DNA of 64,000 bases from an uncultured Candidatus Saccharibacteria bacterium (GCA_964355795.1 CAYHEQ010000001.1:9849-73848); one strand, 5' to 3'; numbered from the stretch's first letter, positions 13,178 through 34,752 are shown. Made by a program: numbers and translations. The notes: generated by a model not told the origin, from the sequence alone.

Positions 13178-13219
13178 CGAGGTTCGACCTTAAACAGCTA
13201 ATTCTCAAGGTCGAACCTC
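13178..13219. repeat. Hairpin repeat family copy (GAGGTTCGACC ... GGTCGAACCTC)
   Basis: ccgaggttcgaccttaaacagctaattctcaaggtcgaacctc; 13-bp inverted arms. Confidence 0.8.
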
Positions 13220-13233
13220 TAGGGGTCTGTTAT

Positions 13234-13279
13234 CCGAGGTTCGACCTTAGCTTCTGAACTTCCCCAAGGTCGAACCTCG
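13234..13279. repeat. Hairpin repeat family copy
   Basis: ccgaggttcgaccttagcttctgaacttccccaaggtcgaacctcgg. Confidence 0.8.
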
Positions 13280-13325
13280 GATTTAGGACATGTTCCGTTG
13301 TTCAATAGTAAATTACTTTTTCTAA

Positions 13326-13721
13326 TCAATACTTGTCCAATTCCTGATTTACCAAAGCGTCCGCTTCTTTATTTTTTTCTCGCCGAATATGCGTGAAGGT
13401 GATTTTTTCAAAATGGCCTTTCAATACGCAAACCTTGGCAAAAAGTGGCTTCAAACCCTCATCTTTGACCCGATATTGGCCATTTAACTGTTTGACCACC
13501 AATTCGCTGTCAAGAAAACATTTCACTTCCCCTTTCGTTATGGTCAAAAGTTTTTTCAACCCCAAAACTAACCCCTCGTATTCCGCCTGATTGTTGGTAG
13601 TTTTTCCTAAAAAAACTGCTCCATTGGCCACTATCTTTTCGCCCTTTTTTATCACAAAAGCTCCCGCTGCCGGTCCCGGATTCCCTCTTGCCCCTCCGTC
13701 CGTGAATAATTCGTAAATCAT
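13326..13721 (-). CDS. rnhA: Ribonuclease HI
   Basis: TDGGARGNPGPAAGAFV ... NNQAEYEGLVLGL ... reKNKEADALVN, the RNase H type 1 catalytic D-E-D-D arrangement, in 131 aa. Confidence 0.85.
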   Translation of the reverse strand: MIYELFTDGGARGNPGPAAGAFVIKKGEKIVANGAVFLGKTTNNQAEYEGLVLGLKKLLTITKGEVKCFLDSELVVKQLNGQYRVKDEGLKPLFAKVCVLKGHFEKITFTHIRREKNKEADALVNQELDKY

Positions 13722-13744
13722 AAATCGTGAATCTTAAATCTTTC

Positions 13745-14380
13745 TTAATAGCTTCTACTCGTCGCTGACGATGTGAGGTTGGTTTCTCCGCGCACCATCT
13801 GATTGCCAGAATCTAGATTAGCTCCGCTAGTAGCCTTGATGGCCACTTGAAGCTTTGGTGGCATTGACAAATTAGGGCTACTGGTTACTGAAAAGGAAAA
13901 ATTTTTGATCACCACTTTTTTATTATCATTGAGATCTACGGGGGTTGATGAAGTAAAGCTAGCGCTACCGATAGTTTTGGTTTCCTTGGTCTGTTTTAGT
14001 AGGCCGTCATCGCAAACAGCGGGGTTGGCGCAAACGAGACTAAAGATGTTACGAGAGACTTGACTCGTTTTGAAATCCGTAGAATAAATAACCAGCGCGT
14101 TCCCTTCCTTCTGATAGGCATGGATAGTTCTCGCCCCGCCCTTGGTCGGTAGATTATCGTATTCGCCGTTAGCCGCCTTGGCTTCACGGATTATTGATTC
14201 CAAAACATAACGAGTATCTTGTTGTGTTTTACGCAAAATACTAGCGCGCCTCTCCAAATTGACGGTGCTCACTAGCGCGTCAGTTGAGAGCGTTACAAAA
14301 ATAGCGAAGATGGATATCGCCACCAAAAGCTCGATCAAAGTAAAGCCTTTTTCTTTAGGTTTTAGGTTTTTGTTTTTCAT
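13745..14380 (-). CDS. Type IV pilin-like protein (pseudopilin/minor pilin) with prepilin N-terminal methylation motif
   Basis: KGFTLIELLVAISIFAIFV prepilin cleavage/methylation signature. Confidence 0.75.
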   Translation of the reverse strand: MKNKNLKPKEKGFTLIELLVAISIFAIFVTLSTDALVSTVNLERRASILRKTQQDTRYVLESIIREAKAANGEYDNLPTKGGARTIHAYQKEGNALVIYSTDFKTSQVSRNIFSLVCANPAVCDDGLLKQTKETKTIGSASFTSSTPVDLNDNKKVVIKNFSFSVTSSPNLSMPPKLQVAIKATSGANLDSGNQMVRGETNLTSSATSRSY

Positions 14381-14389
14381 AATATGTAA

Positions 14390-14590
14390 GCGATGCGAAT
14401 GATGCGAATTATCATGCCTGCCCGCAATGCTCTCGCCCGAAGCTTTTCATATCTGTTTATAATTATCGTACGTAATATTTAGGGAGCAAACAATATGGGT
14501 GGGGCGCATAGCGAGGCGGGCGGGCGAATCTACGAATCTTGTGCGAATTTATTCGCGATAATTCGCGTTAATTAGAGAAAATTAGCGACT
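14390..14590. repeat. GCGAAT-rich intergenic repeat locus containing a 117-bp MITE-like element (14413..14529)
   Basis: gatgcgaatgatgcgaatt ... ctacgaatcttgtgcgaatttattcgcg flanks a 117-bp segment. That segment is about 97% identical to 36201..36315. Confidence 0.8.
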
Positions 14591-15053
14591 AGTATTTGCC
14601 CTTCCAGTCAGTGAAATAAGTCGTTTCAGAAAGTGTCTTCTTCCCTATTTTGTCTGTCCAGCTAACTGTTACTATCACTTTTTTCTTAAAAATAGTCGCG
14701 CCATCATAAATTATTCCGGAGGAAATATCTGTAATGACAATGTCCCTCGTAAAACCGGCCGGCAAAGGCTTCATCAATACGCCATTGAGACTAGCATTAT
14801 CCGTTCCCGCAAACCATTCGGAAGCCGTAGCCACATTATTATCGCGAATATTGCGAATACTTTCCACCGCGTCTTGGATGATATTGTAAGCTACACTCCT
14901 TTTCTGGGCTGTATCCCAACTGCGCACCGCCATTTGCGCCACAAAATGAAGCGACAGCATCACCGTCGTCAGAATAGCAAGACTAACGACGACCTCTATG
15001 AGCGTAAAGCCGTTTTTAGGTTTCAGATTGTAGGTTTTGGGTTGTAGGCTCAT
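14589..15053 (-). CDS. Type IV pilin-like protein (pseudopilin)
   Basis: NGFTLIEVVVSLAILTTVM prepilin motif. Confidence 0.75.
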   Translation of the reverse strand: MSLQPKTYNLKPKNGFTLIEVVVSLAILTTVMLSLHFVAQMAVRSWDTAQKRSVAYNIIQDAVESIRNIRDNNVATASEWFAGTDNASLNGVLMKPLPAGFTRDIVITDISSGIIYDGATIFKKKVIVTVSWTDKIGKKTLSETTYFTDWKGKY

Positions 15054-15055
15054 TT

Positions 15056-15667
15056 TTAGGCTCTGACCACATCCATAGTAATAATATGGGTAGCCGCGTT
15101 AATCGTAATTTTGTAACGAATTTTTGTGTCTGGAGAGCTGATGATAATCTCCGCCTTGTCTCCCGTAATAAGGGAGTTTGTGGCGTCCGACAAAGAGATA
15201 TTCCCCCCCGTCCTATTGCCCACCGCAAAAGAAATCCTTAGGGAATTATAGGAGGTGGAAACCCCATTTTTGTATAATTTAATATCGGCGATAGAAAGTT
15301 TTTTATCCGAAACGAATCTGTCCAAAACTGGGAGCCCTTCGGTCGCTTCAGAGCCTACCATAACTGTTGGGTTACCCAACGAATCGGTGGTGATAGACTC
15401 GTCCTGCACAGAAGAAGTTACGCATGACGCTGGACACAGGCTGATATTGAAAAAATAGGCAGTAGTTTTGGCGCTCCTTGGCGATAAAGATAGCGCTTGT
15501 GCTCCCCAAAGAACGCTTTGGAGATCTTTGGCGGCGTTGCGAACAACAATATGGCTCCTATAAGAGCGCATATTGGGGATAGCGATAGCGGTCAACGAGA
15601 CGATAATGGAAATCACCACTATCGCCTCTATCAAGGTGAAGCCTTTTTGTTTTTTGTTTGTTTGCAT
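15056..15667 (-). CDS. Type IV pilin-like protein (pseudopilin, GspH/FimT-like)
   Basis: KGFTLIEAIVVISIIVSLTAIAIP prepilin motif. Confidence 0.75.
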   Translation of the reverse strand: MQTNKKQKGFTLIEAIVVISIIVSLTAIAIPNMRSYRSHIVVRNAAKDLQSVLWGAQALSLSPRSAKTTAYFFNISLCPASCVTSSVQDESITTDSLGNPTVMVGSEATEGLPVLDRFVSDKKLSIADIKLYKNGVSTSYNSLRISFAVGNRTGGNISLSDATNSLITGDKAEIIISSPDTKIRYKITINAATHIITMDVVRA

Positions 15668-15675
15668 ACTTTTGC

Positions 15676-15800
15676 GCTTATTTTTTAGCGATGCTAATCT
15701 ACGAATAATATGCGCCTATAGCGAATGTCTATGCAAATAGATTCGCATTCCATTCGTAGATTCGCGCGCATTCGCATTTCATTAGCATCGCGCTATCATT
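15676..15800. repeat. GCGAAT-rich intergenic repeat locus with inverted termini AGCGATGCTAAT / ATTAGCATCGCGCT
   Basis: Multiple ATTCGCAT / TCGTAGATTCGC motifs. The termini are reverse complements of each other. Confidence 0.75.
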
Positions 15801-16632
15801 ATACACCCAAATACCATTGAATAATATATTTTCCGAAGAACAAAGCGACGAGAAATCCACAGACCAGAAAAGGCGCAAAAGGGATGATGTCTTGACGCGT
15901 TTTTTTCTTCAGCGCTATCAGAACGAGGCTAAAGACCGAGCCCAAAATAAAGGCCGAAAAAAGCGCGACTAAAATAAGCGGCCATCCTAACAGCAAACCA
16001 ATGAATGTCCCCAATTTCACATCACCCCAACCCATCCATTTTTCTTTTGAAATCAAAACGAGAAGCAGAAAAAATCCCCCGCCAATGATCGGTCCCAAAA
16101 TGAATTGCCCAATATCTGGACTATAGATGAAGAAATTGGCGCCAAAGTCATTATGCAAAACTAGATTTAATAGCCCCAGCAAAAGCAAAAGTAAAATCCC
16201 GGGCAAAACTATTTTGTCCGGGACTAAATAAGTCCTCGCGTCAATGAAAAATATCGCTACCAGCGCCGCCAATCCTAAACCGTAAATGAGAAGAAATATC
16301 GTTAAATTATAGCCGAGGAAAGCTCCGGCGAAACGAAAATAAAGTCCAGCGAAAAGAAGTCCCATGAGCAATTCTAGCGCCGGATAAAGTAGCCCAATTT
16401 TGTTTCGGCAGTGGCGACAACGACCACGAAACGCCAAAAACGCCAAAATCGGCACTAATTCCAGCGCCGTGAGAGTTTGCTTGCATTGGGGACAACGACT
16501 GCGACCGAAAATAATCCCCTCGTCGGTATTAAATCTGGTGATAACCACCGAAAGGAAACTACCGATGATCGTGCCCACCACAAAGTATAAAGCTAGATTG
16601 AAATAGAAGCTGGTCATAAGATTATTATACAA
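15799..16632 (-). CDS. pilD: Prepilin peptidase (A24 family)
   Basis: CPQCKQ..CRHCRNKI zinc-binding tetracysteine. Multi-TM protein with a conserved GWGDVKLG Asp motif. Confidence 0.85.
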   Translation of the reverse strand: MYNNLMTSFYFNLALYFVVGTIIGSFLSVVITRFNTDEGIIFGRSRCPQCKQTLTALELVPILAFLAFRGRCRHCRNKIGLLYPALELLMGLLFAGLYFRFAGAFLGYNLTIFLLIYGLGLAALVAIFFIDARTYLVPDKIVLPGILLLLLLGLLNLVLHNDFGANFFIYSPDIGQFILGPIIGGGFFLLLVLISKEKWMGWGDVKLGTFIGLLLGWPLILVALFSAFILGSVFSLVLIALKKKTRQDIIPFAPFLVCGFLVALFFGKYIIQWYLGV

Positions 16633-16737
16633 CCAAAAACGTTAGATGTTAATCTTTTATTATTAGGGCTTACGCGTTTGATCTTATCTTTTTTTACCGT
16701 TCAATGTCAGGCGTTCTCTATTGGTTGCTGCGTCTTT

Positions 16738-16776
16738 TGAGGTTCGACCTCTGGGCATCCTTTGAGGTCGAACCTC
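16738..16776. repeat. Hairpin repeat family copy (loop variant B) located immediately downstream of the major pilin gene
   Basis: gaggttcgacctctgggcatcctttgaggtcgaacctc. The loop is the reverse complement of the loop in the copy at 29004..29043. Confidence 0.8.
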
Positions 16777-16881
16777 TTGGCGGGGAAGGTTAGGCGCGTA
16801 AGTCCTAATTATGCCATAATTTTCAACCGAATACGGCATCCAGAAGGATGCCGTATTCGTTGCGCGCTTTTGAATTTCCTA

Positions 16882-17325
16882 TCAACTGCTGGTGCAAGCG
16901 GCCGCAATAGCAACGTCTTTCCCCCCGCTACCGACAGAATAAGTGGCCGTACCCCCTGTCGGGATATTCTCAAGTGTGGCTACTAAAGCAAAATCTGTGG
17001 CGTTAGCGCAATATTTATAAAACTCTGTGGCGTTTGGCGCTACAATATCTTTCTCCACATATCCAAGCTTTCTTAGAGAAGTCGCTACAGCTGGATCCCA
17101 AATAATAGCCTTGAAAGAACCCGATGCCGCTGGATAAGTCCCCATATCCAAAGAATACTGCAATACTGCCTTAGAAACATAATCCAAATCCGCCTTTCTC
17201 TTCCCGTCTCTGGCCCTAGACCGAGCCGACGAGAAAGAAGCCAAACCAATAGTCGCCAAGATAGCGATAATGGCAATAACTATCAAAAGTTCAATTAAGG
17301 TAAAACCCTTTTCTTTTTTTTGCAT
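16882..17325 (-). CDS. pilA: Major type IV pilin (PilA-like)
   Basis: KGFTLIELLIVIAIIAILATIGL class III signal, small 147-aa protein, C-terminal Cys pair (YCANATDF...AAACTSS). Strong RBS AAGGAG 5 nt before the ATG. Confidence 0.8.
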   Translation of the reverse strand: MQKKEKGFTLIELLIVIAIIAILATIGLASFSSARSRARDGKRKADLDYVSKAVLQYSLDMGTYPAASGSFKAIIWDPAVATSLRKLGYVEKDIVAPNATEFYKYCANATDFALVATLENIPTGGTATYSVGSGGKDVAIAAACTSS

Positions 17326-17341
17326 AATTTCTCCTTTACTA

Positions 17342-17393
17342 TTAATTTCTTAATTTCTTAATTTCTTAATTTCTTAATTTCTTAATTTCTTAA
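17342..17393. repeat. (TTAATTTC)x6.5 octanucleotide tandem repeat in the 5' leader/promoter of the major pilin gene
   Basis: Six perfect 8-bp units plus a partial unit. They end 16 bp upstream of the pilin start codon, just upstream of the RBS. Confidence 0.9.
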
Positions 17394-17446
17394 CCCTATC
17401 GTAATACAATAACCTCTCTATGTTAAGGGCCACTTTTCAACAGGCT

Positions 17447-18664
17447 CTAAGTAATAACATTGGAAAGCTGGAATATCGGCATCAATATCGCCAAGACCAA
17501 AAACATTACTCCTAGACCAATAATCAACATAATCATTGGCTCAAGCAATGCCGTTAATCCTTTGATGGCCGTATTCGTTTCATCTTCATAAATGCTAGCT
17601 AATTTCAGCAAAATCTTGTCTAGTTGCCCGGTTTGTTCGCCAACAGCAATCATGGAAGCGACCAGTGGCGGGAAATAATGACTACGAGAGATAGGGACAG
17701 ATAAAGGAACTCCTCTCTCTACCTCGGCGATAGAACCCTTGATCTCTTGCTCTATCAAGATATTGCCAACGGATTCCGAGATCATGCTCAAAGATTTGAT
17801 GATAGGCACCCCGCCCCCCATCAAAAGACCGAGATTTTTGGCGAAGTGAGCCGTATAAATACCGAGATTGATCTTGCCAAAAACAGGAAATTTCAGCGCT
17901 ATCCACCCTATGGTATGTTTGCCCGTGGTAGTCAACATGAAATATCTAATCAACAAAACTGTAACAATGATAATGACAATAGTCAAATACCAATAGCTAA
18001 CGAGGAAGTGGCTCAAAGCGACCATCAGTCGCGTCAATACTGGCAGTTGCGCTCCAGAAGATTTGAAAACATCTTCTAGTTGAGGAATAACATAAACGAT
18101 AGCCACCAGGCCCACAGCGCCGATGGCGCCAATGATGAAGATTGGGTAAATCATCGCCGCCTTGATCTTGGACCGCATCGCGTAATCACCCTCCATCTGG
18201 TCGGCGACATCATTCAACGCTCCGTCCAGCTTGCCAGAGGCCTCTCCGCTCCTAATCATACTAATGAAAACTGGGGAAAAAACATAGGGGAACTGGCCAA
18301 TGGCAAAAGAAAAACTTTTGCCTTGTTCTATCAAAGATATTATTTTGATAATAACCTTAACCAAATTTTTATTAGTTGTTTGCCGAACCAGAGATCTCAA
18401 AGCCTCCATCAGGGGCAGACCAGCGTTAATCATCGTGGCTAACTGTCTGGAGAAAATAGCCTTATCTTTGGCTCTGATACCCGCAAAAATGCTACTAAAA
18501 AAATTGCGCACTCGGTCTTCCGTGGCCAAAAATGGTTTAACGGCCAGCACCGTCAGCTTGTTATAACGCAAAATATCATCCACCGCGTCAATGCTGTCGG
18601 CTTCTACCAAACCTTTGATGACCCTCCCCGATTTGTCTTGCGCTTCGTATTGATATTGATCCAT
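17447..18664 (-). CDS. pilC: Type IV pilus assembly platform protein PilC (GspF family)
   Basis: 405 aa with two GspF-like repeats and three TM segments, conserved across its length. Confidence 0.9.
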   Translation of the reverse strand: MDQYQYEAQDKSGRVIKGLVEADSIDAVDDILRYNKLTVLAVKPFLATEDRVRNFFSSIFAGIRAKDKAIFSRQLATMINAGLPLMEALRSLVRQTTNKNLVKVIIKIISLIEQGKSFSFAIGQFPYVFSPVFISMIRSGEASGKLDGALNDVADQMEGDYAMRSKIKAAMIYPIFIIGAIGAVGLVAIVYVIPQLEDVFKSSGAQLPVLTRLMVALSHFLVSYWYLTIVIIIVTVLLIRYFMLTTTGKHTIGWIALKFPVFGKINLGIYTAHFAKNLGLLMGGGVPIIKSLSMISESVGNILIEQEIKGSIAEVERGVPLSVPISRSHYFPPLVASMIAVGEQTGQLDKILLKLASIYEDETNTAIKGLTALLEPMIMLIIGLGVMFLVLAILMPIFQLSNVIT

Positions 18665-18791
18665 ATATTAGGTAAATCACAAACTACAAACTCCAAATCA
18701 CAAACCAATAATTAACGGCCTAGATTTTTGTTGTTTGAGATTTTTAACTTGAGATTTGTTTGCAATTTGTTATTTGTAATTTGTTATTTTA

Positions 18792-19871: not shown

Positions 19872-19970
19872 GGTAATAGTTTATAGGTTTTAGTTTGTAG
19901 TGATTAGTGGAATAAAATTACTTAATTTAACCTAAAAACTATAAACTAAAAACTGATATTTTTATTTTTT

Positions 19971-21815: not shown

Positions 21816-21896
21816 ACTGAATTATGATTCAGGATTTAGGATTTAGGATTTAAAAGATTATTCATGAATCATAAATCATAAATCTTGAATCCCTTC

Positions 21897-22175: not shown

Positions 22176-22195
22176 AAAGCCCCCTCACCTTGACG

Positions 22196-24487: not shown

Positions 24488-24844
24488 TCAAATTTTTGTA
24501 TTTAATATCCTATTGGGCTTAAGATGGCTATTTCTAAAATTAACTATCATCCCCAACTTCAAATTATTAATTTCTAGGTATCTTTTTACTTGAAAATAAT
24601 CTTCTTTGTCCGCAAAATTTTTTGCTTTGCATTCTACTACTATTTTATCTTCTATGAGAAAATCCATTCTATTCCCACTGCCATCATTTAATTCTCTTTT
24701 ATAAGCAACACCTTTATTCTGCAGTTCCTTCTCTATTTCATCACAATATTGTTTTTCTTTACAGAATCGCCCTAGTCTATTTTGAACTGCAAAAAATATC
24801 CCATTTATTTTGTAAGACAATTCCGGATAAATTACATCCTTCAT
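24488..24844 (-). CDS. GxxExxY-family protein (PD-(D/E)XK superfamily)
   Basis: INGIFFAVQNRLGRFCKEKQYCDEIEKEL ... IVVECKAKNF ... LKLGMIVNF fits the GxxExxY family profile. Confidence 0.65.
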   Translation of the reverse strand: MKDVIYPELSYKINGIFFAVQNRLGRFCKEKQYCDEIEKELQNKGVAYKRELNDGSGNRMDFLIEDKIVVECKAKNFADKEDYFQVKRYLEINNLKLGMIVNFRNSHLKPNRILNTKI

Positions 24845-24849
24845 TTATT

Positions 24850-24910: not shown

Positions 24911-27076
24911 TTACTGCCTGGCTTTGAATACTTCTTTGGCAAATCCCGGTGGCGGGGACAAGACTACTCGCGGATCGTATTGGAAATCTTCGGCTGGTTG
25001 CCAATCCAGATATTTAGGATCGTTAGGCTTTATTGAACCCTTGCAAATTGGTGGCAAGGCGTTATCGCAAGACCAGAGTAGCTCTTTCGGACCAATGTAA
25101 TTGCGATAAAGTTGGAAAGCTTCTGATCGCGAAGAAACATTCCACCACCCGCTAGCGATGACCACTCCATGAATGACTAATTGTTTGTCATAAGTCTCTC
25201 CGCCACAAGCAGCGGGGGTAATAGCGCAAGAACCGCTAATAAAGCTCCCCTTTTGACCGGTATTGGCTTTGTCAGAATAGATGAAGAATACGCCCTCCAG
25301 CCTTCCTACCCTCGGACTGACATTGACATTGCCATTTTTGACAATGAAGCCCACCATATCTTTGTTTTTGTTCTCGTATTGCAGACTGTCGTTAATAGAA
25401 AGATCGCCATCAACAACAACCGTTCCTCTGCCACGCAGGGTCATCGGCGAACCGCTATTGTTACCTATCGTCAAACCGTCACTATAATAAAGAGCGCCTC
25501 CTTCAGGGATATTGGTGGGATTGAGGTCTATTGTCGCGCTAGTGAGACTACCTTTGCCATAACTAGTTTTGGCTATTTTGGCGCCATTAATTAGTTTCGT
25601 CCGACTTTTTTCTATAATTCCGCAAGCCGAATTTTCTTGACAGACTTTGTCTTCATCTAGACCAAAACTGGAAGGACTATTAGAGCTGATGCCGTATGCG
25701 CCCACCGTCCAATCGCTCGCTGATTTTGATTGAGACGCTATATTGCCACCAGAACCGATGATGTAGAGAACGCTAGAAGGATTTCTCAAGTTCACTCCCT
25801 TGCGACCAAAAACGCTACCCCCGGTGGATTCTTTGAGGAAAGAATAAGTAACGATGTCTATGTCTGTTTTGGTAGTTTGCTCTGTCCCCGTCGTAAAGGT
25901 CGCGGTATTGGTAATTACTGAATTGGCTGTCACCTCTTTGGCAATAGTTACTTCTACTTCAAAATGATAATTGGTGGCGTGGACCAAAGAATTGATCGTT
26001 ATGGACAAAGAATTAGTCCCCGCAGTAGCGACGCTATAACTAGCGGAAATGATGTTAGCGCTTTTTACCCTGATACCCTTGATGGCAGACGCTGGCGTAA
26101 CCGTATCGTTGATGGTCAAAGTTCCTCCATCGGTAATATTATCCACCGCTACATCAAGATCGTAAGTGGTGGTGAAATCAATGCCCGGATTAATGAGGAG
26201 AGAAGTATCGTCGCTTTTACTCGCTGTTATCAGAGCCGACATCGGACTGATGAGCAAGACTTCCGCCGCCGAGTATTGCCAATGAATCTTGTCTTCAGAA
26301 ATAGCGGCTACTCCTTTGACTAAATACATGGCGGGATCAACCAAGGAGTTGCCCTTGTTGTCAAAAACTAGCGCTTCCGCCGTAGAACGATCAATATTTT
26401 TGAGATCGGACATTTTGTAAAAAGTGAGCGCGAGATTAGTCGTAGAATTGGCAAAAACAGTAAATCTCCTTCCCTCTTTCGGTTGCGGAACATAATATTG
26501 AACGCCTCCGATGGTTATCGTATCAGATCCGCCACTATCCACGGAGATGAAGTGTGTGCCGACTTTCAGATTAGAAATATTAAAATTCCCACTAGTAGGC
26601 GTGGCCGTTACCCCATCTATCAAAAGAGGGGCGATGATCGGACCGCTGTCGCTATTTTTCATCTCAATGCTGGCCGATCCCAAACCGATTGCTTCCGTAG
26701 CTGTCAACATTACTGTCTTGGAAATTTCCGCGCTAGCACCATTGATGCAAAGTAATTTGTAGATGGCCGAACCTTGCGGAACAAAAGTTTTCACTACTCC
26801 AAGAGGAGCGCCCCAACTACTGACGATAGTGGCGCCTAAGTCATCTATAATCCTGCATGAAGTAGCGCTGGAAACAGTGTAATAGAGAGTTATTGGGTCC
26901 ATCGGGTTTTTGATAGTGACATTTTTGAATGGCAGACCGCTAATACCATCAAAAACAAATTTCGTGATCGTCGGCTCGCCGACCGCCCGCGCGGAAGTGG
27001 CGCCAAAAATAATCCCCGCTACCAACGCTGGGAGAAAAACTAGCCCGAAAATAATGGATGAATATCTTTTGTTCAT
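24911..27076 (-). CDS. Large secreted protein (721 aa), possible adhesin
   Basis: N-terminal signal peptide (IIFGLVFLPALVAGIIFGATSARA). Ser/Thr/Gly/Asn-rich beta-type composition. No catalytic motifs. Confidence 0.65.
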   Translation of the reverse strand: MNKRYSSIIFGLVFLPALVAGIIFGATSARAVGEPTITKFVFDGISGLPFKNVTIKNPMDPITLYYTVSSATSCRIIDDLGATIVSSWGAPLGVVKTFVPQGSAIYKLLCINGASAEISKTVMLTATEAIGLGSASIEMKNSDSGPIIAPLLIDGVTATPTSGNFNISNLKVGTHFISVDSGGSDTITIGGVQYYVPQPKEGRRFTVFANSTTNLALTFYKMSDLKNIDRSTAEALVFDNKGNSLVDPAMYLVKGVAAISEDKIHWQYSAAEVLLISPMSALITASKSDDTSLLINPGIDFTTTYDLDVAVDNITDGGTLTINDTVTPASAIKGIRVKSANIISASYSVATAGTNSLSITINSLVHATNYHFEVEVTIAKEVTANSVITNTATFTTGTEQTTKTDIDIVTYSFLKESTGGSVFGRKGVNLRNPSSVLYIIGSGGNIASQSKSASDWTVGAYGISSNSPSSFGLDEDKVCQENSACGIIEKSRTKLINGAKIAKTSYGKGSLTSATIDLNPTNIPEGGALYYSDGLTIGNNSGSPMTLRGRGTVVVDGDLSINDSLQYENKNKDMVGFIVKNGNVNVSPRVGRLEGVFFIYSDKANTGQKGSFISGSCAITPAACGGETYDKQLVIHGVVIASGWWNVSSRSEAFQLYRNYIGPKELLWSCDNALPPICKGSIKPNDPKYLDWQPAEDFQYDPRVVLSPPPGFAKEVFKARQ

Positions 27077-27103
27077 TTGAATTTTGACTTTATGGTTCCT
27101 CGT

Positions 27104-27140
27104 CCGAGGTTCGACCTTAGCTTCTAAATTTCTCCGAAGT
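27104..27140. repeat. Hairpin repeat family, half copy
   Basis: ccgaggttcgaccttagcttctaaatttctccgaagtctc; the right arm is absent. Confidence 0.6.
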
Positions 27141-27146
27141 CTCCGT

Positions 27147-27191
27147 CCGAGGTTCGACCTTAACTTCTAAACTTCTCCAAGGTCGAACCTC
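27147..27191. repeat. Hairpin repeat family copy
   Basis: ccgaggttcgaccttaacttctaaacttctccaaggtcgaacctc. Confidence 0.8.
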
Positions 27192-27261
27192 TTTACCCCT
27201 GTTTTTCTGTTTTTTTTAATTTTATTCAATCTGCAATCTGAAATCTAGAATCTGCAATTCT

Positions 27262-28017: not shown

Positions 28018-28037
28018 TTTAATTGTTAGTTTCGCGT

Positions 28038-28101
28038 CCGAGGTTCAACCTTAGCTCCTAAACTTCTCCACTTGTCCGCCTCTGGAGGAAGGTTGAACCT
28101 C
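28038..28101. repeat. Hairpin repeat family copy (T-to-A variant, long loop)
   Basis: ccgaggttcaaccttagctcctaaacttctccacttgtccgcctctggaggaaggttgaacctc. Confidence 0.7.
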
Positions 28102-28123
28102 TTAATTCTTGTTTGCGCTTTCC

Positions 28124-28654: not shown

Positions 28655-28741
28655 TTTAATTTTAATATAAATTCCTTATCCGACTTCTAATTTTTTATTT
28701 TTTTAATTTTCTTGTCCCGCGAAACCTTTGGCGAAGTGGGA

Positions 28742-29020
28742 TTACTTTTTTAGCCCTTCCCCCGCTATAGGTCCCGGCATTTGACTCGTTTCAAAGCCAT
28801 AAGTCGTTTCCCCCTTCTTCTTCGCCTCCTCTATCGCCAGATTTCTTTTAATCATATCCGGCGTGCCGGCTATCGGTGACTTACTTCGTAACCGTATCTC
28901 GTTATACGCCACCACTCCCAGCAAAACGACTCCGACCGCAAGAGTGATGATAGCAATATGGCGAAAAGTTATTTCTTTCATACTAAATTTTAATTTCTCC
29001 AATCCGAGGCTCAACCTCAA
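28742..29020 (-). CDS. Small membrane protein
   Basis: The N-terminal 13 codons lie inside a hairpin repeat. The likely real start is MKEITFRHIAIITLAVGVVLLGVVA at about 28981. Confidence 0.4.
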   Translation of the reverse strand: MRLSLGLEKLKFSMKEITFRHIAIITLAVGVVLLGVVAYNEIRLRSKSPIAGTPDMIKRNLAIEEAKKKGETTYGFETSQMPGPIAGEGLKK

Positions 29021-29043
29021 AGGATGCCCAGAGGTTGAACCTC
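29004..29043. repeat. Hairpin repeat family copy (loop variant B, opposite orientation)
   Basis: ccgaggctcaacctcaaaggatgcccagaggttgaacctc. Confidence 0.75.
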
Positions 29044-29065
29044 TTTACCCTAGATGGTTTCCTGT

Positions 29066-29110
29066 CCGAGGTTCAACCTTAGCTTCCAAACTTCCCCAAG
29101 GTTGAACCTC
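29066..29110. repeat. Hairpin repeat family copy
   Basis: ccgaggttcaaccttagcttccaaacttccccaaggttgaacctc. Confidence 0.8.
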
Positions 29111-29173
29111 TGACCAATAATTTTTGTCTTCCGCGTAAGTCTGCGTTAAGTCTGCGTCCGTCCGCGGTCGGCG

Positions 29174-29830
29174 CTACTGCGCGACTCCCTGTCCCAATCC
29201 ATCATACAATTTATAATCGTCACTACAAGTGGTCAAGATTTCTGCCGTGGATTTGTGAGCGTAATTGGTTTGCGTTTTGTCAATCACCGTCCCGATGCCG
29301 TAAAGCAATTTAGCCGATAGTGGGTCGCAAACGGACTTAATTATGAATTCGGCAATCGCTGTATTGCCACCATATGTCGCCGTAACTATTATTTTCTTGC
29401 CAGGCACAGAATCGGGACCCAATTTGATGAAAGCTCTAGAATAAGAATCAATAGAAGATACTTCAGGGTTAGCCGTCAAAGAAGTCGTGCTCCCACCAGG
29501 TGATTTATAAAAATTAGCATCGAACTCAACATCTGTTTTCGGCAAAAAAGAAGCTCCTGTAACCTGCGAAATATCCCATTCATACGTGACTGTTGGCCCT
29601 TTAATTGGCAGTCCGGCACCAAGGTTGTCTGTCGTCTGCACTACTAGCTGTAATACTTGCCCCGGCTGAACATCACAACTACTAGGATCATTACACCCGA
29701 CGACAGTCGCGCTAACACTTTCGATGGCAAAGGGAGTCCTCCCATTATTTTTGAAAGCAAAAACTCCTGCGACCATAATGACAATGACCACAACAAACAC
29801 TCCTATTTTTTTTATTCTGTTTTTTATCAT
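29174..29830 (-). CDS. Membrane-anchored secreted protein
   Basis: Signal anchor IGVFVVVIVIMVAGVFAF. Contains Cys pairs. No known domain. Confidence 0.5.
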   Translation of the reverse strand: MIKNRIKKIGVFVVVIVIMVAGVFAFKNNGRTPFAIESVSATVVGCNDPSSCDVQPGQVLQLVVQTTDNLGAGLPIKGPTVTYEWDISQVTGASFLPKTDVEFDANFYKSPGGSTTSLTANPEVSSIDSYSRAFIKLGPDSVPGKKIIVTATYGGNTAIAEFIIKSVCDPLSAKLLYGIGTVIDKTQTNYAHKSTAEILTTCSDDYKLYDGLGQGVAQ

Positions 29831-29868
29831 AATATTCTCTGCCTTTATCTAAAAATCTAAAACCTAAT

Positions 29869-30768
29869 TTATTTTACTGGCACCAATTTTATCGGATTAT
29901 TATACTGATCCAACAAACTTTGCAAAAATGGATCTTGAGGATTTTGCGCCAAACCATCTTTTAAGACCAGCTTCGCTCCCGCAATATCTTTCTGACTATG
30001 CAACATAGTGGCCAAACCATAATAAGCGGCCACTAATTTCGCGTCCAGCCTGATAGCTTCTCGATATTGTTTCTCGGCCGCCTCGTATTTTTCCTGACTA
30101 CTCAAGACATTAGCAAAATTGTTGTGGTAAATAGCGACAGAAGGCTCTTTGGCCACTACTTGCCCCCAAGTTTCTACAGCCTTGGTGAGATTACCAACAT
30201 TTTGGTAAAGTGAAGCTAATGTCGCCAAATCCTCCGCGCTGACAGCTGATTTTTCCAAAATCGTCGTCGCCTCCACATACCTCTTCAGTCTTTCTTCTGG
30301 TGTCAGGGTTCGGCCACTATCTGCGTCCACACCCATCCCCGCTTCTTGGATAGTCTGTTGAAGAGTTTTTTGCGTATCAGAACCAATGATATTTTCCCTG
30401 ATAGTCGTGAGGTAGAAAGAGCCCGCAATGCCAGCTATGATGATAACCAGTAAAGTTGCCCCCAAGAAAATCCCTATTCTCCTGCGGTATCGCGGTATCT
30501 GCAAACGCGAGATATCCACCACCCGCACCGTCCCGGGCTCGGCAAAATTATGCACCAAAATCTCCCCTTGCCGAAGCTTACCAACAACCACTTTTTTGTT
30601 TTTTCGCGCACCTTGATTTTTTCTAATAATCTTGCGCGACCCTCCGAAACTTGCTACTCGCGAGACAGGAATAGTAGTTCCGTGAGCGAGTAAGCGTGAA
30701 GGACGGGTTGGTTTTACTACCTTTTTTGGCTTCAGTTTCTCTTTTTGTTTGCGTTTTTTGATTGACAT
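29869..30768 (-). CDS. TPR-repeat membrane protein
   Basis: Basic N-terminus, one TM segment (IGIFLGATLLVIIIAGIAGSF), then TPR-like repeats (AIYHNNFANVLSSQEKYEAAEKQYREAIRLD). It is paralogous to 34002..34730 and 38073..38759. Confidence 0.7.
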   Translation of the reverse strand: MSIKKRKQKEKLKPKKVVKPTRPSRLLAHGTTIPVSRVASFGGSRKIIRKNQGARKNKKVVVGKLRQGEILVHNFAEPGTVRVVDISRLQIPRYRRRIGIFLGATLLVIIIAGIAGSFYLTTIRENIIGSDTQKTLQQTIQEAGMGVDADSGRTLTPEERLKRYVEATTILEKSAVSAEDLATLASLYQNVGNLTKAVETWGQVVAKEPSVAIYHNNFANVLSSQEKYEAAEKQYREAIRLDAKLVAAYYGLATMLHSQKDIAGAKLVLKDGLAQNPQDPFLQSLLDQYNNPIKLVPVK

Positions 30769-30784
30769 ATATTTCTTTATTTTT

Positions 30785-30866
30785 TATTTTTCCCGACGCA
30801 CTATATTTTTTAATATAATGAAGTCGGGATCCCGATTTCGCGATAGCGAACATCGGGACTTATTTT
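30785..30866. repeat. About 82-bp conserved intergenic element, copy 2 of 2, abutting the TPR gene start
   Basis: About 95% identical to 4116..4196. Contains the TCGGGATCCCGA palindrome and the AT-rich TATATTAAAAAATATA box. It ends about 20 bp before the ATG at 30768. Confidence 0.8.
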
Positions 30867-30872
30867 CTTGAC

Positions 30873-31265
30873 TTATCGTAAAACTGGAGAAGCTTCCATC
30901 GATTTTATTTCTTTAATGTCTTTAGAATTAAAAATTTTCTTCTCTCCAAGCTTATCCACTACTTTTTCTAATTTTTCGTCCCTTTTCCTCATCATAACAA
31001 TCAAATCGCTCTTCAAATTAATCATTTTGTCTGTCATGAAACTCTTGGTGACCATTTGATTCCTTACGCTATCTATATCGGCTTGCAGATCAGTTTTGAC
31101 GGCTTGCAGATCAGTTTTGACACTCTGCAGGTCAGTTTTTACACCCTGAAGATCGGTTTTTATTTCCTTAATATCCCCATGAATACCGCCAAATTGATCA
31201 GTAAGGAAATCCATGAATTTCTCATCATTCATGATGCTAGATTGTTTGGTATTTTCTCCTGTCAT
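30873..31265 (-). CDS. Small coiled-coil protein with 7-aa tandem repeats (KTDLQxV x4)
   Basis: IKTDLQGVKTDLQSVKTDLQAVKTDLQA is encoded by a 4 x 21-bp tandem repeat. Confidence 0.5.
   Translation of the reverse strand: MTGENTKQSSIMNDEKFMDFLTDQFGGIHGDIKEIKTDLQGVKTDLQSVKTDLQAVKTDLQADIDSVRNQMVTKSFMTDKMINLKSDLIVMMRKRDEKLEKVVDKLGEKKIFNSKDIKEIKSMEASPVLR
31080..31163. repeat. 4 x 21-bp tandem repeat (coding)
   Basis: ggcttgcagatcagttttgac x2, followed by two diverged units. Confidence 0.85.
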
Positions 31266-31406
31266 TTTATTTTCTTAATTTTCGCACACCATAATATTTT
31301 TACAATAGTCTGTGCGACCCTCCGAAACGCAACCTATTTGCAAATTTCTGATATTCAGAATATTGCAAGAGGTTAAGTGAAGGATGGGTTTATTTTTTTA
31401 GCCCCA

Positions 31407-33989
31407 CTATTTCACCGGATTCAATATGTGCTTCGGCACAGTGATTGTTACGGCCTTAGTGTTATCGGTAATAATGACTGCGGTAGCGCCACTAGTGGCC
31501 GTGGCCACCAGATTCACTGCGTAAGTGCTGTTGGATTTTAATATACTGAAACTGCAATTGGTCGTAACCGAAGAACAATTGGGAAGACTGGTTGGCAAAA
31601 TGACAGTCCCATTTTCTTTAACTTGCCAATTATAGCCAGAGGTCACCGTCCCTCCCACTGCTACCATCTCTGGCTTCACCGTTACCGTATCCCCTACTCG
31701 GAGAGAGCCGGAAATAGTCCAGTCGCCAGTAGTTTCTTGAGTGGGAGTCACCGAAGCGCCAGCGTTGACGATAGCGCCATCGGTAATGATGTTCGCTCCC
31801 GCTCTGCCCACATCCGGCTTGATGCTCAAAGAGGCCGAAGAGGGAGCGGGAGGATTAAGCCCTGCTGTTTTAGTCACTGTTCCCATCGCCCCGCGACTGT
31901 CTGTTACGGTCAAAGTAAAGGAATAAAGTCCTCCTCCATTAGTATACTCGGGATATGTATAAGCGAGGTCTTTTTTGGTAAAAAGAAGGAATGGAGAAGG
32001 ATCGTCAGAGATTTTTTGGGAATCAGAGGAAGTGTAAGTATAGATATAAGCGGGGTCCCAAGACTTTGTTACCTTCCATGCCCAACTCGTAATTGTATCC
32101 CCATCGGGATCGGTTGATTGATCGTAATATTTGAAATCCATCGTCGTCCCGAGCTGCGTGCCATCAAACTTCGCCACAGGAGGGCTATTCACAGATGTAT
32201 AACTACACACAAAACCAATTGTTCCGCCAGCAGTAAGTGTTCTTATTGATGGAGGAATAAATGTGTATCCCGTCTTAGCCGGACAGGTGGCGGTATAAGA
32301 GCCAATTGGAGCAGTTGTTGAAACAGCAACGGCTACATTCGGCGTAACCACCGTCCCCGTATAGGTTGTCGTAGCAGGACTGGGACCCTTAACTGTGATA
32401 GTTGTATCAGGAAGAGTGGAGTTGATGTTGATGGTGCCAGGTAATACTTTGTCCACCGTAATTGTTTTCGTCGCTGTGTCACTAAACGCCCCTCGACTAT
32501 CCTGAACCATAAGAGACGCTGTATATGTCCCTACGGACGAATACTTATGGAGAGGTTTTTTTTCAACACTATCAATTATCCCGTCATTATTAAAATCCCA
32601 AAACCAACCAGTAATACCGTCGCCATCAGGATCGGTGGAGGTATCTGTAAATTGCACTGAAAGTGGTACAGAGCCAGAAATGGGGCTGGCAACAAACCTG
32701 ACTAAAGGAGATTTATTGGGAAAGGACAATCCTCCGCAACCATCCGTTCTAGATATAACAACAGTACCGTCACCAGCGACTTCTCTAGCGCCTCCTGTGC
32801 CAATGCCACTTCCACCAATACCGCCGTTAGCAGTAACTGTCTTAAATCTCACATCTCTTCCGGCTTCAAAAACTTGCTCGCCACTCCATGTCCCGTCTTC
32901 TTTCTTCGATAATATCTTTATTCTCCCACCACCACCAGCATAAGGTGGAAAATAGCTACCAGCTACCCCGTCGCCACCATTAGCGCTAATCATACCTTCG
33001 TGATTGAAGCTATTTGTAACAATACAAATAGATCCACCAGAGCCACCACCGCCTATTCGTCCACCATTACCTATCTCACCTATCTTGCCATTAGCAGAGA
33101 TACTACCATCTTTATCTATGATGATTTTGTTAGCAGATATTACTATGAGACCACCACCGCTACCGCCAGTATAATCACCATTATAGCCATAAGATCCTAC
33201 TCCCATGCCACCTCCACCTCCACTGCCCCACTGGTCTGGATTATTCTTATCGCCATAAGTATATGACCCAACATCCGCTCCTAAACCTCCATAGCCTCCG
33301 CCCGAACCGGCATATACATAAATAGAGTTAGTAAATGACCAACCTCCACCTCCAGGACCATAGCCATACTGCTTACCAGTGCCACCACTATACCCAAATC
33401 CATCTGCGGTTATTTTACCGCCAGAGTTAATTATCAGTTCTTTATTGATGATGAGTTGCATACTACCAACATCGCCGGGAGATCTTGTCTTTTGGGTTAA
33501 AACACCGTCGTTTATTATAGTTAAGCTATTGAAATAATGCTCTCCATCAATTTGTACCGTTGAACCATTAATAACAACATCTTTCTTGTCGTACTGAACA
33601 TTAGTTGATGAGATAACTCCCGATGGAAATACGGCGCTAATAGGCACAAAATTAGCCATCAAAGCAGTGTTGCCTTGACCAAAAGTGAAGGTCGCAGTAC
33701 TAGTGACCTTGCTAGAAATATTGCCATAAATAGGGTTAGAAGTAAAAGTCCAACCATAAAATTTATATCCCAGATTCGCAGTGGCGGTAATGGTCCTGGT
33801 GGAATTTTCATTCGTCCCTCCGCCAATCACCACGCCATACTCGCTCGGACCAGCCGTCAATGTGAGAGTATAAGTCGTTGCGGCTTGGGCTTTTTGGTTT
33901 TGCGTACCCCAAGCCATTACTGCGGCAATAATTAGCGCAATTCCGATGACGAAAATAGCTAACTTCTTTTTGTCTAAAGTTTTTATCAT
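31407..33989 (-). CDS. Large secreted adhesin-like protein (860 aa) with InlB B-repeat, Gly-rich region and two PKD domains
   Basis: Conserved leader MIKTLDKKKLAIF...AQAA, B-repeat GYKFYGWTFTSNPIYG, and long GGSGGG tracts. PKD motifs WFWDFNNDG and STDPDGDTITSWAW are present. Confidence 0.75.
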   Translation of the reverse strand: MIKTLDKKKLAIFVIGIALIIAAVMAWGTQNQKAQAATTYTLTLTAGPSEYGVVIGGGTNENSTRTITATANLGYKFYGWTFTSNPIYGNISSKVTSTATFTFGQGNTALMANFVPISAVFPSGVISSTNVQYDKKDVVINGSTVQIDGEHYFNSLTIINDGVLTQKTRSPGDVGSMQLIINKELIINSGGKITADGFGYSGGTGKQYGYGPGGGGWSFTNSIYVYAGSGGGYGGLGADVGSYTYGDKNNPDQWGSGGGGGMGVGSYGYNGDYTGGSGGGLIVISANKIIIDKDGSISANGKIGEIGNGGRIGGGGSGGSICIVTNSFNHEGMISANGGDGVAGSYFPPYAGGGGRIKILSKKEDGTWSGEQVFEAGRDVRFKTVTANGGIGGSGIGTGGAREVAGDGTVVISRTDGCGGLSFPNKSPLVRFVASPISGSVPLSVQFTDTSTDPDGDGITGWFWDFNNDGIIDSVEKKPLHKYSSVGTYTASLMVQDSRGAFSDTATKTITVDKVLPGTININSTLPDTTITVKGPSPATTTYTGTVVTPNVAVAVSTTAPIGSYTATCPAKTGYTFIPPSIRTLTAGGTIGFVCSYTSVNSPPVAKFDGTQLGTTMDFKYYDQSTDPDGDTITSWAWKVTKSWDPAYIYTYTSSDSQKISDDPSPFLLFTKKDLAYTYPEYTNGGGLYSFTLTVTDSRGAMGTVTKTAGLNPPAPSSASLSIKPDVGRAGANIITDGAIVNAGASVTPTQETTGDWTISGSLRVGDTVTVKPEMVAVGGTVTSGYNWQVKENGTVILPTSLPNCSSVTTNCSFSILKSNSTYAVNLVATATSGATAVIITDNTKAVTITVPKHILNPVK

Positions 33990-34001
33990 TTTTTTCTTGT
34001 T

Positions 34002-34730
34002 TTATCCTCTTCTGTATGTCATCAATATCTGCTTCAACATCTCATCTTTTGGAATTTGAGCTGTTCCCTCTTCTAAAACTTTTATCGCTTCTGCTCTATT
34101 ATTTTCGAAATCTCTCAAAAGTACCGCTAGATTAACATAGGTGGCAGAAAAATGTGGGTCAATGGTGATGGCTTCGCGATAATGCTTTTTTGCTTCTTCG
34201 TATTTTTTTTCACTACGCAAAACATTGCCCAGATTATTATGCAAAATAGCGTCTTGAGGAGTTACTTTTACGGCTTGTGAGAAAAACTCCTCGGCTTTAC
34301 CCAAATCTCCAAGATTATAATAAGAAACGGCAAGTTTCTGTAAAACATCCTTGTTGTTAGGCTGTGTATTGATAACTTTTTCTAATTCTTCCACGGTTTC
34401 TTTGTATTTTTTTGTTTGCATTTCTGCGCTTATTGCCTGATCGCCACTTTTACCCATCGTTGCCTCCCTGTACGCATCCAGCCCATTCGCTAACCATTCC
34501 TGCGCTTTCACATCGCGCCAAATACGATATTTATTCAACAGAACATTCGCCAACAAAGATCCCCCATAAACCACAACTATAAGAATAATTATACTAATTA
34601 TAATTTTTGCTTTTTTATTAAAAATCTTCCTCTTTCTCTCCTCCCAATTTTTGTTTTTCTTTTTCATAAGTGAAATTTCTGTATCTGTAGTATATATTTC
34701 CTCATTTAGAGGTTCGACCTTAGTTTCCAA
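34002..34730 (-). CDS. TPR-repeat membrane protein (paralog)
   Basis: The first about 11 codons of the ORF are a hairpin repeat, so the start is likely MKKKNKNW at about 34667. One TM segment then TPR repeats (ILHNNLGNVLRSEKKYEEAKKHYREAITID). Confidence 0.65.
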   Translation of the reverse strand: METKVEPLNEEIYTTDTEISLMKKKNKNWEERKRKIFNKKAKIIISIIILIVVVYGGSLLANVLLNKYRIWRDVKAQEWLANGLDAYREATMGKSGDQAISAEMQTKKYKETVEELEKVINTQPNNKDVLQKLAVSYYNLGDLGKAEEFFSQAVKVTPQDAILHNNLGNVLRSEKKYEEAKKHYREAITIDPHFSATYVNLAVLLRDFENNRAEAIKVLEEGTAQIPKDEMLKQILMTYRRG

Positions 34731-34752
34731 ACTTCTCCGAGGCCAAATCTCT
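34708..34752. repeat. Hairpin repeat family copy (degenerate right arm)
   Basis: agaggttcgaccttagtttccaaacttctccgaggccaaatctc. Confidence 0.65.

Follow-up and report, generated by a model that had tools for sequence, protein, structure and literature searches.

The type IV pilus region and its hairpin elements

The 64-kb stretch of DNA analysed here (CAYHEQ010000001.1:9849-73848; hereafter the window, with positions counted from its first letter) is compact, gene-dense bacterial DNA, in which the minus strand holds 51 of the 70 crude gene calls and the plus-strand GC skew is constant and negative throughout. Outside the population, the nearest homologues of its PilC protein reach about 66-68% identity (one of these is labelled Microgenomates), and fragments with a 100% identical PilC come from the 0.1-µm fraction of Hainich aquifer well H52. 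Because of these relationships the organism is placed in the Patescibacteria, or candidate phyla radiation (CPR). A search for an identical record of the window's PilB protein found none. Between 13.2 and 34.8 kb the window contains nine copies of a short hairpin element, one of which is a half copy (C1) and one decayed (F1). The copies sit in a type IV pilus and surface-protein region, the genes of which include pilB, pilT, pilC, the pilin gene, pilD and three more pilin-like genes, together with genes for PilN/PilO-like proteins, tetratricopeptide repeat (TPR) proteins and large Ig/PKD-repeat proteins.

With at most one mismatch allowed, the window has 16 occurrences of the 11-mer GAGGTTCGACC, where dinucleotide shuffles predict 0.55, and 15 of the 16 are located inside the nine elements. 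The sixteenth, at position 10124 within an open reading frame (ORF) for a UvrD/PD-(D/E)XK helicase-nuclease, looks like a chance match. An nhmmer profile built from the copies recovers exactly these nine in the 64 kb and nothing more. The basic unit is a 13-nt near-palindrome, GAGGT-TCR-ACCTC (5-3-5), and each element consists of two inverted units separated by a spacer of 14-39 nt, the element size being 34-67 bp. Copies in the window follow the layout (TCC)GAGGTTCRACCTT - loop - AAGGTYGAACCTC with arms GAGGTTCRACCT/AGGTYGAACCTC; they begin with TCC-GAGG and end with CCTC-TTTA or similar. The elements are as follows.

A1, 13176-13221, plus strand: full hairpin with arms GAGGTTCGACCTT/AAGGTCGAACCTC and a divergent loop, AAACAGCTAATTCTC; -25.4 kcal/mol.
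A2, 13233-13282, plus strand: full hairpin, its arm perfect over 17 bp (ATCCGAGGTTCGACCTT), with the type-1 loop; -34.8 kcal/mol, z -7.2.
B1, 16737-16778, no strand assigned: full hairpin with the type-2 loop, CTGGGCATCCTTTG, in the pilin-pilD spacer.
C1, 27103-27140, plus strand: half copy with left arm and type-1 loop, right arm lost.
C2, 27146-27193, plus strand: full hairpin with the type-1 loop.
D1, 28037-28103, plus strand: A/T arm variant, GGTTCAACC/GGTTGAACC, with the type-1 loop and an 18-nt module, CCTCCAGAGGCGGACAAG (sense strand).
E1, 29003-29045, plus strand: A/T arm variant with the type-2 loop in the orientation opposite to B1; one sense-strand G·U wobble.
E2, 29065-29112, plus strand: A/T arm variant with the type-1 loop, in tandem with E1.
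F1, 34706-34752, plus strand: decayed copy with left arm and type-1 loop intact and the right arm mutated (GAGGCCAAATCTC).

The seven intact copies have predicted folding energies of -23.7 to -34.8 kcal/mol (z -3.2 to -7.4 relative to shuffled controls), while the decayed F1, at -13.4 kcal/mol (z -1.2), is not distinct from such controls. Tandem pairs are present at three sites. A1 is the first member of one of them, and ORF 12693-13142 starts 34 nt downstream of it; ORF 24911-27076 likewise starts 27-70 nt downstream of C1 and C2. The 14-nt loop of B1 has its exact reverse complement, CAAAGGATGCCCAG, as the loop of E1. An A in the left arm is accompanied by a matching T in the right arm in three neighbouring copies, D1, E1 and E2. 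The original prediction, which was made from the sequence of the window, had placed nine dispersed hairpins at these sites, several of them in tandem and with two loop types, one of which recurs as its exact reverse complement in a second copy, and our analysis agrees with it on each of these points. It had also described T-to-A arm variants that keep the pairing; the pairing is indeed kept, but the change is G-to-A on the left and C-to-T on the right.

As had likewise been stated, every copy (9 of 9) is intergenic within a run of same-strand genes, here between co-directional minus-strand genes, and lies 13-35 nt (B1 about 120 nt) upstream of the next start codon. Occupied spacers make up 6 of the 20 intergenic gaps at 13-35 kb and none of the 32 elsewhere (Fisher p = 0.0019), leaving 42 of the 64 kb without units. 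All seven type-1 copies share one orientation, on the strand of constant GC skew (two-sided p about 0.016), which fits strand-specific transposition of single-stranded DNA, although this orientation is inseparable from the direction of transcription. Most reading frames of the window's own copies contain stop codons. The ORF starts at 29020 and 34730 run into elements and are artefacts of them, as suspected earlier; ATG starts are present further downstream, at about 28990 and 34667.

Distribution of the family in other genomes

One genome per species (185,579 genomes) was scanned with the pattern GAGGTTCRACCT-N10-40-AGGTYGAACCTC, a sampling that is biased to perfect arms. The scan returned at least 97 loci from about 70 assemblies produced by many different studies, where an estimate from the information content of the pattern gives about 0.3 chance matches. 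The elements are therefore a dispersed family resembling repetitive extragenic palindromic (REP) sequences and their hairpin-forming doublets (REPINs), as proposed originally, and not a local duplication. Nearly all of the matches listed are from Patescibacteria, including Wolfe-, Jorgensen-, Yanofsky-, Nealson-, Lipton-, Moran-, Falkow- and Azambacteria, genomes labelled 'Saccharibacteria' and four Hainich metagenome-assembled genomes (MAGs). A few are labelled Omnitrophota, Elusimicrobia or Gammaproteobacteria, and some of these labels may be unreliable. An origin from phages was considered and rejected, since there was no megablast match in 50,697 phage records and none, in either arrangement of the arms, in 2.9 million viral contigs.

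Among the matches listed there are 102 full hairpins, and in these the central base of the two arms covaries strictly: it is A-T in 53, G-C in 48 (101 Watson-Crick pairs together), G·T in one and A·C in none. Loops in the same set of matches vary between genomes (10-35 nt), with loop families recurring in both orientations. The two units stand in the FR arrangement 114 times and in the RF arrangement six times, in a sample biased towards FR, and only 14 of 259 units are unpaired. Other dialects of the unit (GATGTCCGACATC, GAAGTTCAACTTC, GAGGCTMAGCCTC and GGGGTGAAACCCC) also occur, in which paired positions change together; thus GATGT..ACATC, GAAGT..ACTTC and GAGGC..GCCTC keep the pairing both within the unit and between the arms. 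The tetranucleotide GTAG was seen in a few loci only (L061 and L095; loci collected here carry L numbers). An exact GATGTCCGACATC is also found in the window at 49731-49743, in an ORF resembling arginyl-tRNA synthetase, and its translation, LMSDI, belongs to a stretch that looks conserved; it was judged a chance match because there is no insertion at that place. When a metagenome collection was scanned with the type-1 loop of the window, a single match was obtained (L098), so that relatives are rare in that collection.

Copies inside genes

Unlike the copies of the window, many elements of other genomes are located inside genes. Among the matches listed, 59 of the 102 full hairpins lie in long ORFs that read straight through them, 43 of these with at least 50 codons on each side, and the in-gene share is about 40-55% of the perfect hairpins sampled. 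Ten of the in-gene ORFs were scanned against Pfam, and seven turned out to be housekeeping genes for replication, repair or tRNA synthetases, namely UvrA (twice), UvrB, DNA polymerase I, NAD-dependent ligase and two class I tRNA synthetases of the Ile/Leu/Val type. The remaining three encode a nuclease-domain protein, an MFS/spermidine-synthase fusion and an O-antigen-ligase/TPR protein. Where checked, Pfam domains flank the hairpin on both sides. The two UvrA proteins carry clean inserts of 14 and 17 residues at different positions, each absent from the other protein, and one LigA, compared with that of E. coli, has a clean insert of 17 residues. The copies use each of the three reading frames (25, 23 and 11 cases), giving peptides of the forms EVRP...VEPR, RGSTS...GRTS and RFDL...RSNL, and the conservation is therefore at the level of nucleotides and not of protein. 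At an apparently orthologous in-gene site upstream of rpsL-rpsG-fusA, the arms are 100% identical in three divergent genomes while the flanking codons are almost randomised.

Removal of the hairpins by splicing, or their ribosomal bypass as in T4 gene 60 and the mitochondrial 'byps', was rejected as an explanation, the ORFs being read through in-frame with domains on both sides. Hairpins that lie tightly between two ORFs separate distinct genes and not the halves of one gene. One of the interrupted tRNA synthetases (Ile/Leu/Val type; L067 2-3328, from a Hainich Patescibacteria MAG), which has its hairpin insert at residues 238-250, also has a complete histidine-phosphatase domain (His_Phos_1, residues 456-616) between tRNA-synthetase domain matches.

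Association with a RAYT-like transposase

Clustering of the ORFs of the 97 listed loci, carried out without prior expectation, revealed a family of proteins of 220-260 residues in six loci. All six match Pfam Y1_Tnp, and their only NCBIfam match is NF047646, 'REP-associated tyrosine transposase' (RAYT), at 25-49 bits relative to an equivalog cut-off of 80. The sole sequence match in the PDB is 4ER8, the E. coli RAYT, and the motifs YNRG, NHFH (HUH motif), FQG and YIxxNP are invariant. In an AlphaFold model (predicted local distance difference test, pLDDT, 89; predicted template-modelling score, pTM, 0.86) the top fold match is again 4ER8, in which RAYT is bound to a REP hairpin (E 1.7e-6), followed by IS200/IS605 transposases. 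A profile search places at least 7,970 clusters in this protein family, and the clusters named to a taxon are almost all from CPR lineages, with one exception labelled Spirochaetia.

The genes of this family are closely associated with the 13-nt unit. All six clustered genes have units near both ends, and five more genes, fetched by protein homology alone, have single stem-extended units about 20-45 nt from both ends (5 of 5), so that units flank both ends of 11 of the 11 Y1/HUH transposase genes examined. In L108, ATCTTAC-GAGGTTCGACCTC-GTAAGAT is present on both sides of the gene, and in L106 and L109 CTTAC-GAAGTTCAACTTC-GTAAG stands beside it. The distance to such a gene is at most 250 nt for four hairpins, where about 0.13 are expected (Poisson p about 1e-5). 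This flanked single-gene arrangement is the layout of a 'REPtron', and the suggestion that the elements are targets of a RAYT-type transposase thereby gains strong comparative support from other Patescibacteria. Single in-frame units are also present within the RAYT-like genes themselves (L026 1941-1954 and 2230-2242; L030 3966-3978 and 4157-4169; L108 10181), encoding peptides such as RGSTS and EVEPQ, so that the repeat has colonised its own transposase gene.

Variation between strains and relatives

Comparison with other contigs of the population reveals turnover of the elements at the strain level. L098 is 95.6% identical to window 12717-13301, and A1 and A2 are in place there with identical arms and one or two changes per loop; conservation of the arms in this pair is uninformative, the differences being too few. 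At the B1 site, L103 and L104 match the window, whereas L102, a fragment with a 100% identical PilC, has an element of the GATGTCCGACATC type with an inverted loop and an extra 18-nt module as in D1. This module is found within elements of both L102 and L098. Inversion of the loop, as between B1 and E1 and between strains, would be the expected product of recombination between inverted arms.

An extra GATGTCCGACATC-type element in L098 (955-1043, compared with window 16775-16808 and 12622-12717) carries a 34-nt flank that is 91% identical, in inverted orientation, to the flank of B1 in the pilin-pilD spacer. This is exactly the point at which L098 ceases to resemble the window, so that the element lies at a rearrangement breakpoint. 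Several short-read contigs of the population also end at or just past an element, as is expected because it is a dispersed repeat.

More distant relatives (L099-L101, about 66-68% PilC identity) have the same order of pilus genes and no unit of the window's arm type. The gap between the RNase H gene and the next gene, the site of A1 and A2, is 184 nt in the window and only 4 nt in L099. In L101 (PilC about 66% identical) the pilin-pilD spacer holds one stem-extended unit, ACC-GATGTCCGACATC-GGT, at 11977-11989, about 21 nt before pilD. This spacer is either a long-lived location of the element or a hot spot for its insertion.

The pilin spacer and transcription

The original prediction had considered the hairpins as terminators within operons, and the one behind the pilin gene as an attenuator that would set the ratio of pilin to machinery transcripts. 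Our analysis agrees with neither. In the sense (minus) orientation none of the nine copies is followed by a U-tract, the 3' flanks being GGAUUAG, GGAUAAC, GGACGG, GGACGC, GGAUUGG, GGACAGG, AAAAGAC and similar; a terminator scan returned none of the copies, and the same element is present inside essential coding genes elsewhere. As for the pilin gene, it has its own hairpin. B1 lies beyond this hairpin, about 105 nt past the pilin stop codon, between it and a promoter-like site of pilD.

The pilin gene's own hairpin is unique in sequence, has a 14-bp stem and is located at 16828-16860 (CGAATACGGCATCC-TTCT-GGATGCCGTATTCG, sense strand), about 20 nt past the stop codon. The best sigma-70-like site of the region (16652-16624, TTAACA-17-TATAAT, 11 of 12 matches) stands just before pilD and ends a few nucleotides before the likely ATG of this gene (about 16617). 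If used, it would imply that the pilD mRNA is leaderless or has a very short leader.

Five of the six occupied spacers are too short for a promoter before the next gene, and at most sites the hairpins must therefore be transcribed within operon mRNAs. It is possible that they affect the stability or translation of these mRNAs as a by-product. The hairpins of the window are no basis for inferring regulation of the pilus genes.

Nature of the elements

Taken together, these observations make it probable that the nine hairpins are REPIN-like elements of a REP/REPIN-RAYT-type family spread through the Patescibacteria. Because the repeat flanks the gene of a hairpin-binding transposase and is often found in-frame inside essential genes, the hairpins are most likely selfish mobile DNA and not regulators of the pilus. 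The elements would be non-autonomous, and their RAYT-like HUH/Y1 transposase would come from one gene in another part of the genome, with single REP units on its flanks. The hairpin would form in single-stranded DNA, where the enzyme would recognise the conserved stem, cut beside the hairpin through a phosphotyrosine intermediate and rejoin the element at new single-stranded sites, probably at the replication fork. Cutting and rejoining of hairpins by an HUH/Y1 enzyme is established for TnpA-REP of E. coli and for IS608; from these we infer the corresponding chemistry, and RAYT activity, in the present organism. Purifying selection would then leave the harmless copies, either in spacers or, in-frame and free of stops, in tolerant loops of proteins. 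For the window this would mean the spacers between genes in the type IV pilus and surface-protein cluster, and for other CPR genomes in-frame sites within protein-coding genes as well.

Several observations weigh against this reading. All copies of the window are confined to 22 kb, and the classical unpaired GTAG/CGTC tag of REPs is absent from them. A Y1_Tnp gene was looked for in the 64-kb window and none is present, so that the link to RAYT holds for this genome by inference. The RAYT-like genes come mainly from Parcubacteria-type genomes, whereas the window is Microgenomates/CPR3-like. Their products, which are distant members of the family and not equivalogs, fall below the NCBIfam cut-off and have an extra C-terminal helical domain of about 70 aa. 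The identity of the arms at the rpsL-rpsG-fusA site could reflect selection at the level of the host, besides recognition by the transposase or homogenisation. No empty site that would reveal the choice of target and the chemistry of insertion was seen at nucleotide resolution.

An alternative that we consider unlikely is that the elements are primarily functional RNA hairpins, which would adjust the expression of the pilus and surface-protein genes as terminators or attenuators within operons or by blocking 3'-5' decay. The hairpins are predicted to be stable, they lie between co-directional genes near the next start and hence mostly within polycistronic mRNAs, wobble pairs occur once in the window (the sense-strand G·U of E1) and once among the 102 hairpins (G·T), and the pilin-pilD spacer is occupied by a unit even in L101. 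In E. coli, REPs stabilise upstream mRNA. However, besides the missing U-tracts, the negative terminator scan and the separate hairpin of the pilin gene, the sequence of the stem is identical across lineages while loops vary, which is unlike terminators, the same element is found in-frame in uvrA, ligA, polA and tRNA synthetase genes, and the syntenic pilus loci of relatives work without the elements. Effects on RNA may be a side effect and not the reason for which the elements exist. It is quite improbable, too, that they are selfish or relic palindromes of the Rickettsia palindromic element (RPE) kind, spread by recombination or some other route without RAYT, or immobile in this genome. The lack of a RAYT gene in the window, the half and decayed copies (C1 and F1), and the 34-nt flank that moves with an element between two loci, suggestive of recombination and not of precise transposition, all agree with such an origin, and CGTC-type REPs and RPEs without a known transposase have been described (PMC3733652). 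Against it stand the flanking of all 11 RAYT-like genes by units, the statistical strength of this association and the fact that the unit flanking the gene can equal the dispersed one, as in L108.

We regard it as very improbable that the elements are inverted pairs of DNA uptake sequences recognised by a competence pilus, comparable to the DNA uptake sequence (DUS) of Neisseria or the uptake signal sequence (USS) of Haemophilus. A constant 12-13-mer in inverted pairs with variable loops, in the pilus region of a CPR bacterium, a group that encodes type IV pili, would agree with such a role. However, uptake sequences occur about once per kilobase, mostly as singletons and also in genes, whereas here 42 kb are free of units and singletons are rare (the 14 of 259 unpaired units). 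There are several dialects, some of them in different strains of the population and some beside the transposase gene of a single genome; a transposase gene is flanked by units; and uptake does not need strict covariation of the arms. Least credible of all are integron attC-like sites or an artefact of local duplication or assembly. The A/T variant (GTTCAAC/GTTGAAC) does fit the attC cores RYYYAAC/GTTRRRY, but the G/C variant (GTTCGAC/GTCGAAC) does not, the flanking genes form a conserved syntenic pilus operon and are not cassettes, and no integrase was found among the ORFs annotated, which are not all of those in the window. The confinement of the window's copies to 22 kb would suit an artefact; this is refuted by the presence of the motif in about 70 independent assemblies and in independent Hainich contigs of the same population.

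Beyond the window, a wider and more tentative proposal, slightly less likely than not, is that a single REP core (G-N-N-G-T / NNN / A-C-N-N-C, most often GAGGTTCRACCTC) and its partner RAYT-like transposase form one REPIN system, which has either persisted in much of the Patescibacteria, and in some genomes labelled Omnitrophota, or spread through them, with a large share of its copies in-frame in essential genes. If so, REPINs would be a regular source of peptide insertions, strain-level hypervariable sites, rearrangement breakpoints and assembly breaks in CPR genomes, and the identical arms amid randomised codons would point to very long-lived co-evolution of element and transposase or to a role at the level of the host.

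Comparison with known systems

The nearest known systems are the REP sequences, bacterial interspersed mosaic elements (BIMEs) and REPIN-RAYT 'REPtrons' of Escherichia and Pseudomonas (Bertels & Rainey 2011, PMC3116915; Di Nocera 2013, PMC3733652), with properties of RAYTs described in PMC5581495. The family described here shares with them short imperfect palindromes, mostly in inverted doublets which fold with their spacer into one long hairpin, compensatory changes in the stem, several sub-families in one genome, a small HUH/Y1 transposase gene with copies of the palindrome on either side, and some copies in replication, repair and tRNA synthetase genes. It differs in that the CPR unit is only 13 nt long (5-3-5) and is extended by variable complementary flanks, and in that it lacks the unpaired GTAG/CGTC and has paired CTTAC...GTAAG flanks around transposase genes. 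The core recurs across many lineages instead of being species-specific, the in-frame, in-gene share is much larger, and the transposase, of about 235 aa, has the additional C-terminal helical domain and stays below the curated RAYT threshold. These systems were reportedly also treated by Nunvar in 2010 and Ton-Hoang in 2012, and 4ER8 is said to be the structure of Messing, 2012.

RPEs, reportedly described by Ogata et al. in 2000, are likewise palindromic repeats of a host-dependent bacterium with a small genome, which insert in-frame into essential genes, adding short peptides where these are tolerated, and also lie between genes. The likeness holds for the CPR family, with its UvrA and LigA inserts, and not for the copies of the window. 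RPE-1 is longer (100-150 bp against 34-67 bp here) and unrelated in sequence, and the resemblance is a likeness and not membership because no sequence is shared. To our knowledge no transposase is known for RPEs, whereas the CPR unit is physically linked to a RAYT-like gene. IS200/IS605 elements and their palindrome-associated transposable element (PATE) derivatives (IS608, ISDra2) have in common with our family the HUH/Y1 fold, being the second-best structural matches, and the recognition of sub-terminal hairpins, and their strand-specific transposition of single-stranded DNA is the model for the mechanism borrowed here. However, the CPR genes are isolated and have the same palindrome on either side; they lack tnpB and distinct left and right ends, and the dispersed copies consist of the hairpin alone. 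A constant stem with a variable loop between genes is also a feature of inverted DUS/USS pairs and of intrinsic terminators; the present elements differ from these by the lack of a U-tract and of an excess of singletons, by their very uneven density and by the link to a transposase. TIGR-Tas arrays were considered and set aside, since they are tandem and next to tas genes, unlike these dispersed hairpins.

Among open-access papers and preprints we found none on REP, REPIN or RAYT in CPR genomes and none with the 13-mers in a relevant context, which agrees with the earlier remark that such elements had not been characterised in this kind of genome. The novelty is moderate, because intragenic REPs and REPtrons are already known elsewhere: REPs in uvrA, uvrB, dnaE, ligase and tRNA synthetase genes, as well as REPtrons, have been catalogued for GTAG and CGTC REPs of other phyla, including RPE-4 and RPE-6 of Rickettsia (PMC3733652). 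New here are the 13-nt core with paired flanks, its occurrence across the CPR, the high in-gene fraction and the longer, divergent RAYT-like protein.

REPIN-RAYT systems, the best-studied long-lived, vertically inherited 'replicators' of bacteria, have so far been described mainly in Proteobacteria and a few other phyla, and a CPR system would extend their known range to a very different region of the tree. Such a system would also account in a simple way for the short inserts in housekeeping proteins of the CPR and for the fragmentation of assemblies. Annotators should expect false ORF starts at such hairpins and should refrain from calling the hairpins terminators or regulators. For the biochemistry of RAYTs, the family offers a compact 27-nt hairpin substrate and an enzyme of roughly 235 aa; ATCTTACGAGGTTCGACCTCGTAAGAT and a REPIN of the window are candidate substrates for a RAYT-like protein such as P0230 (L108).

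Other features of the window

Five tRNA genes are located in the hairpin-free part of the window, four in a minus-strand cluster and one on the plus strand (36792-38009 and 41639-41709). In an Rfam search of the window at the gathering score these five tRNAs were the only matches, and in E-value mode only sub-threshold miRNA and snoRNA look-alikes were added. Mimicry of the tRNA T-arm by the hairpin unit, suggested by its likeness to GGTTCGA, was rejected, the loop being 2 nt too short.

A second, unrelated palindrome family of 32 nt, perfect and of the form ATTCTCACATTCT-NN-AGAATGTGAGAAT, is present at 42963-42994, 43278-43309 and 45303-45334. Two of its copies bracket a PIF1-like helicase gene (43310-45253), and the third is upstream of a SpoU methylase gene (42381-42914). 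These palindromes appear operator-like, or may be terminal repeats.

Spacers of the pilus region also contain low-complexity direct and inverted repeats (19877-19954, 21818-21884, 27215-27260 and 29125-29165), namely TAGTTTATAGG..., GATTTAGGATTTA, TCTGCAATCTGAAATCT and GTAAGTCTGCGTTAAGTCTGCG, often beside hairpin elements, and similar runs of GGATTTTAGG stand beside the extra element of L098. Finally, small genes for PD-(D/E)XK (PDDEXK_3) proteins and '23S rRNA intervening sequence protein' are scattered inside the syntenic pilus operons at differing positions (window 24488-24844; L099 14605-14997; L101 2073-2525 and 6499-6891), which suggests that other small mobile genes are present in the pilus region.

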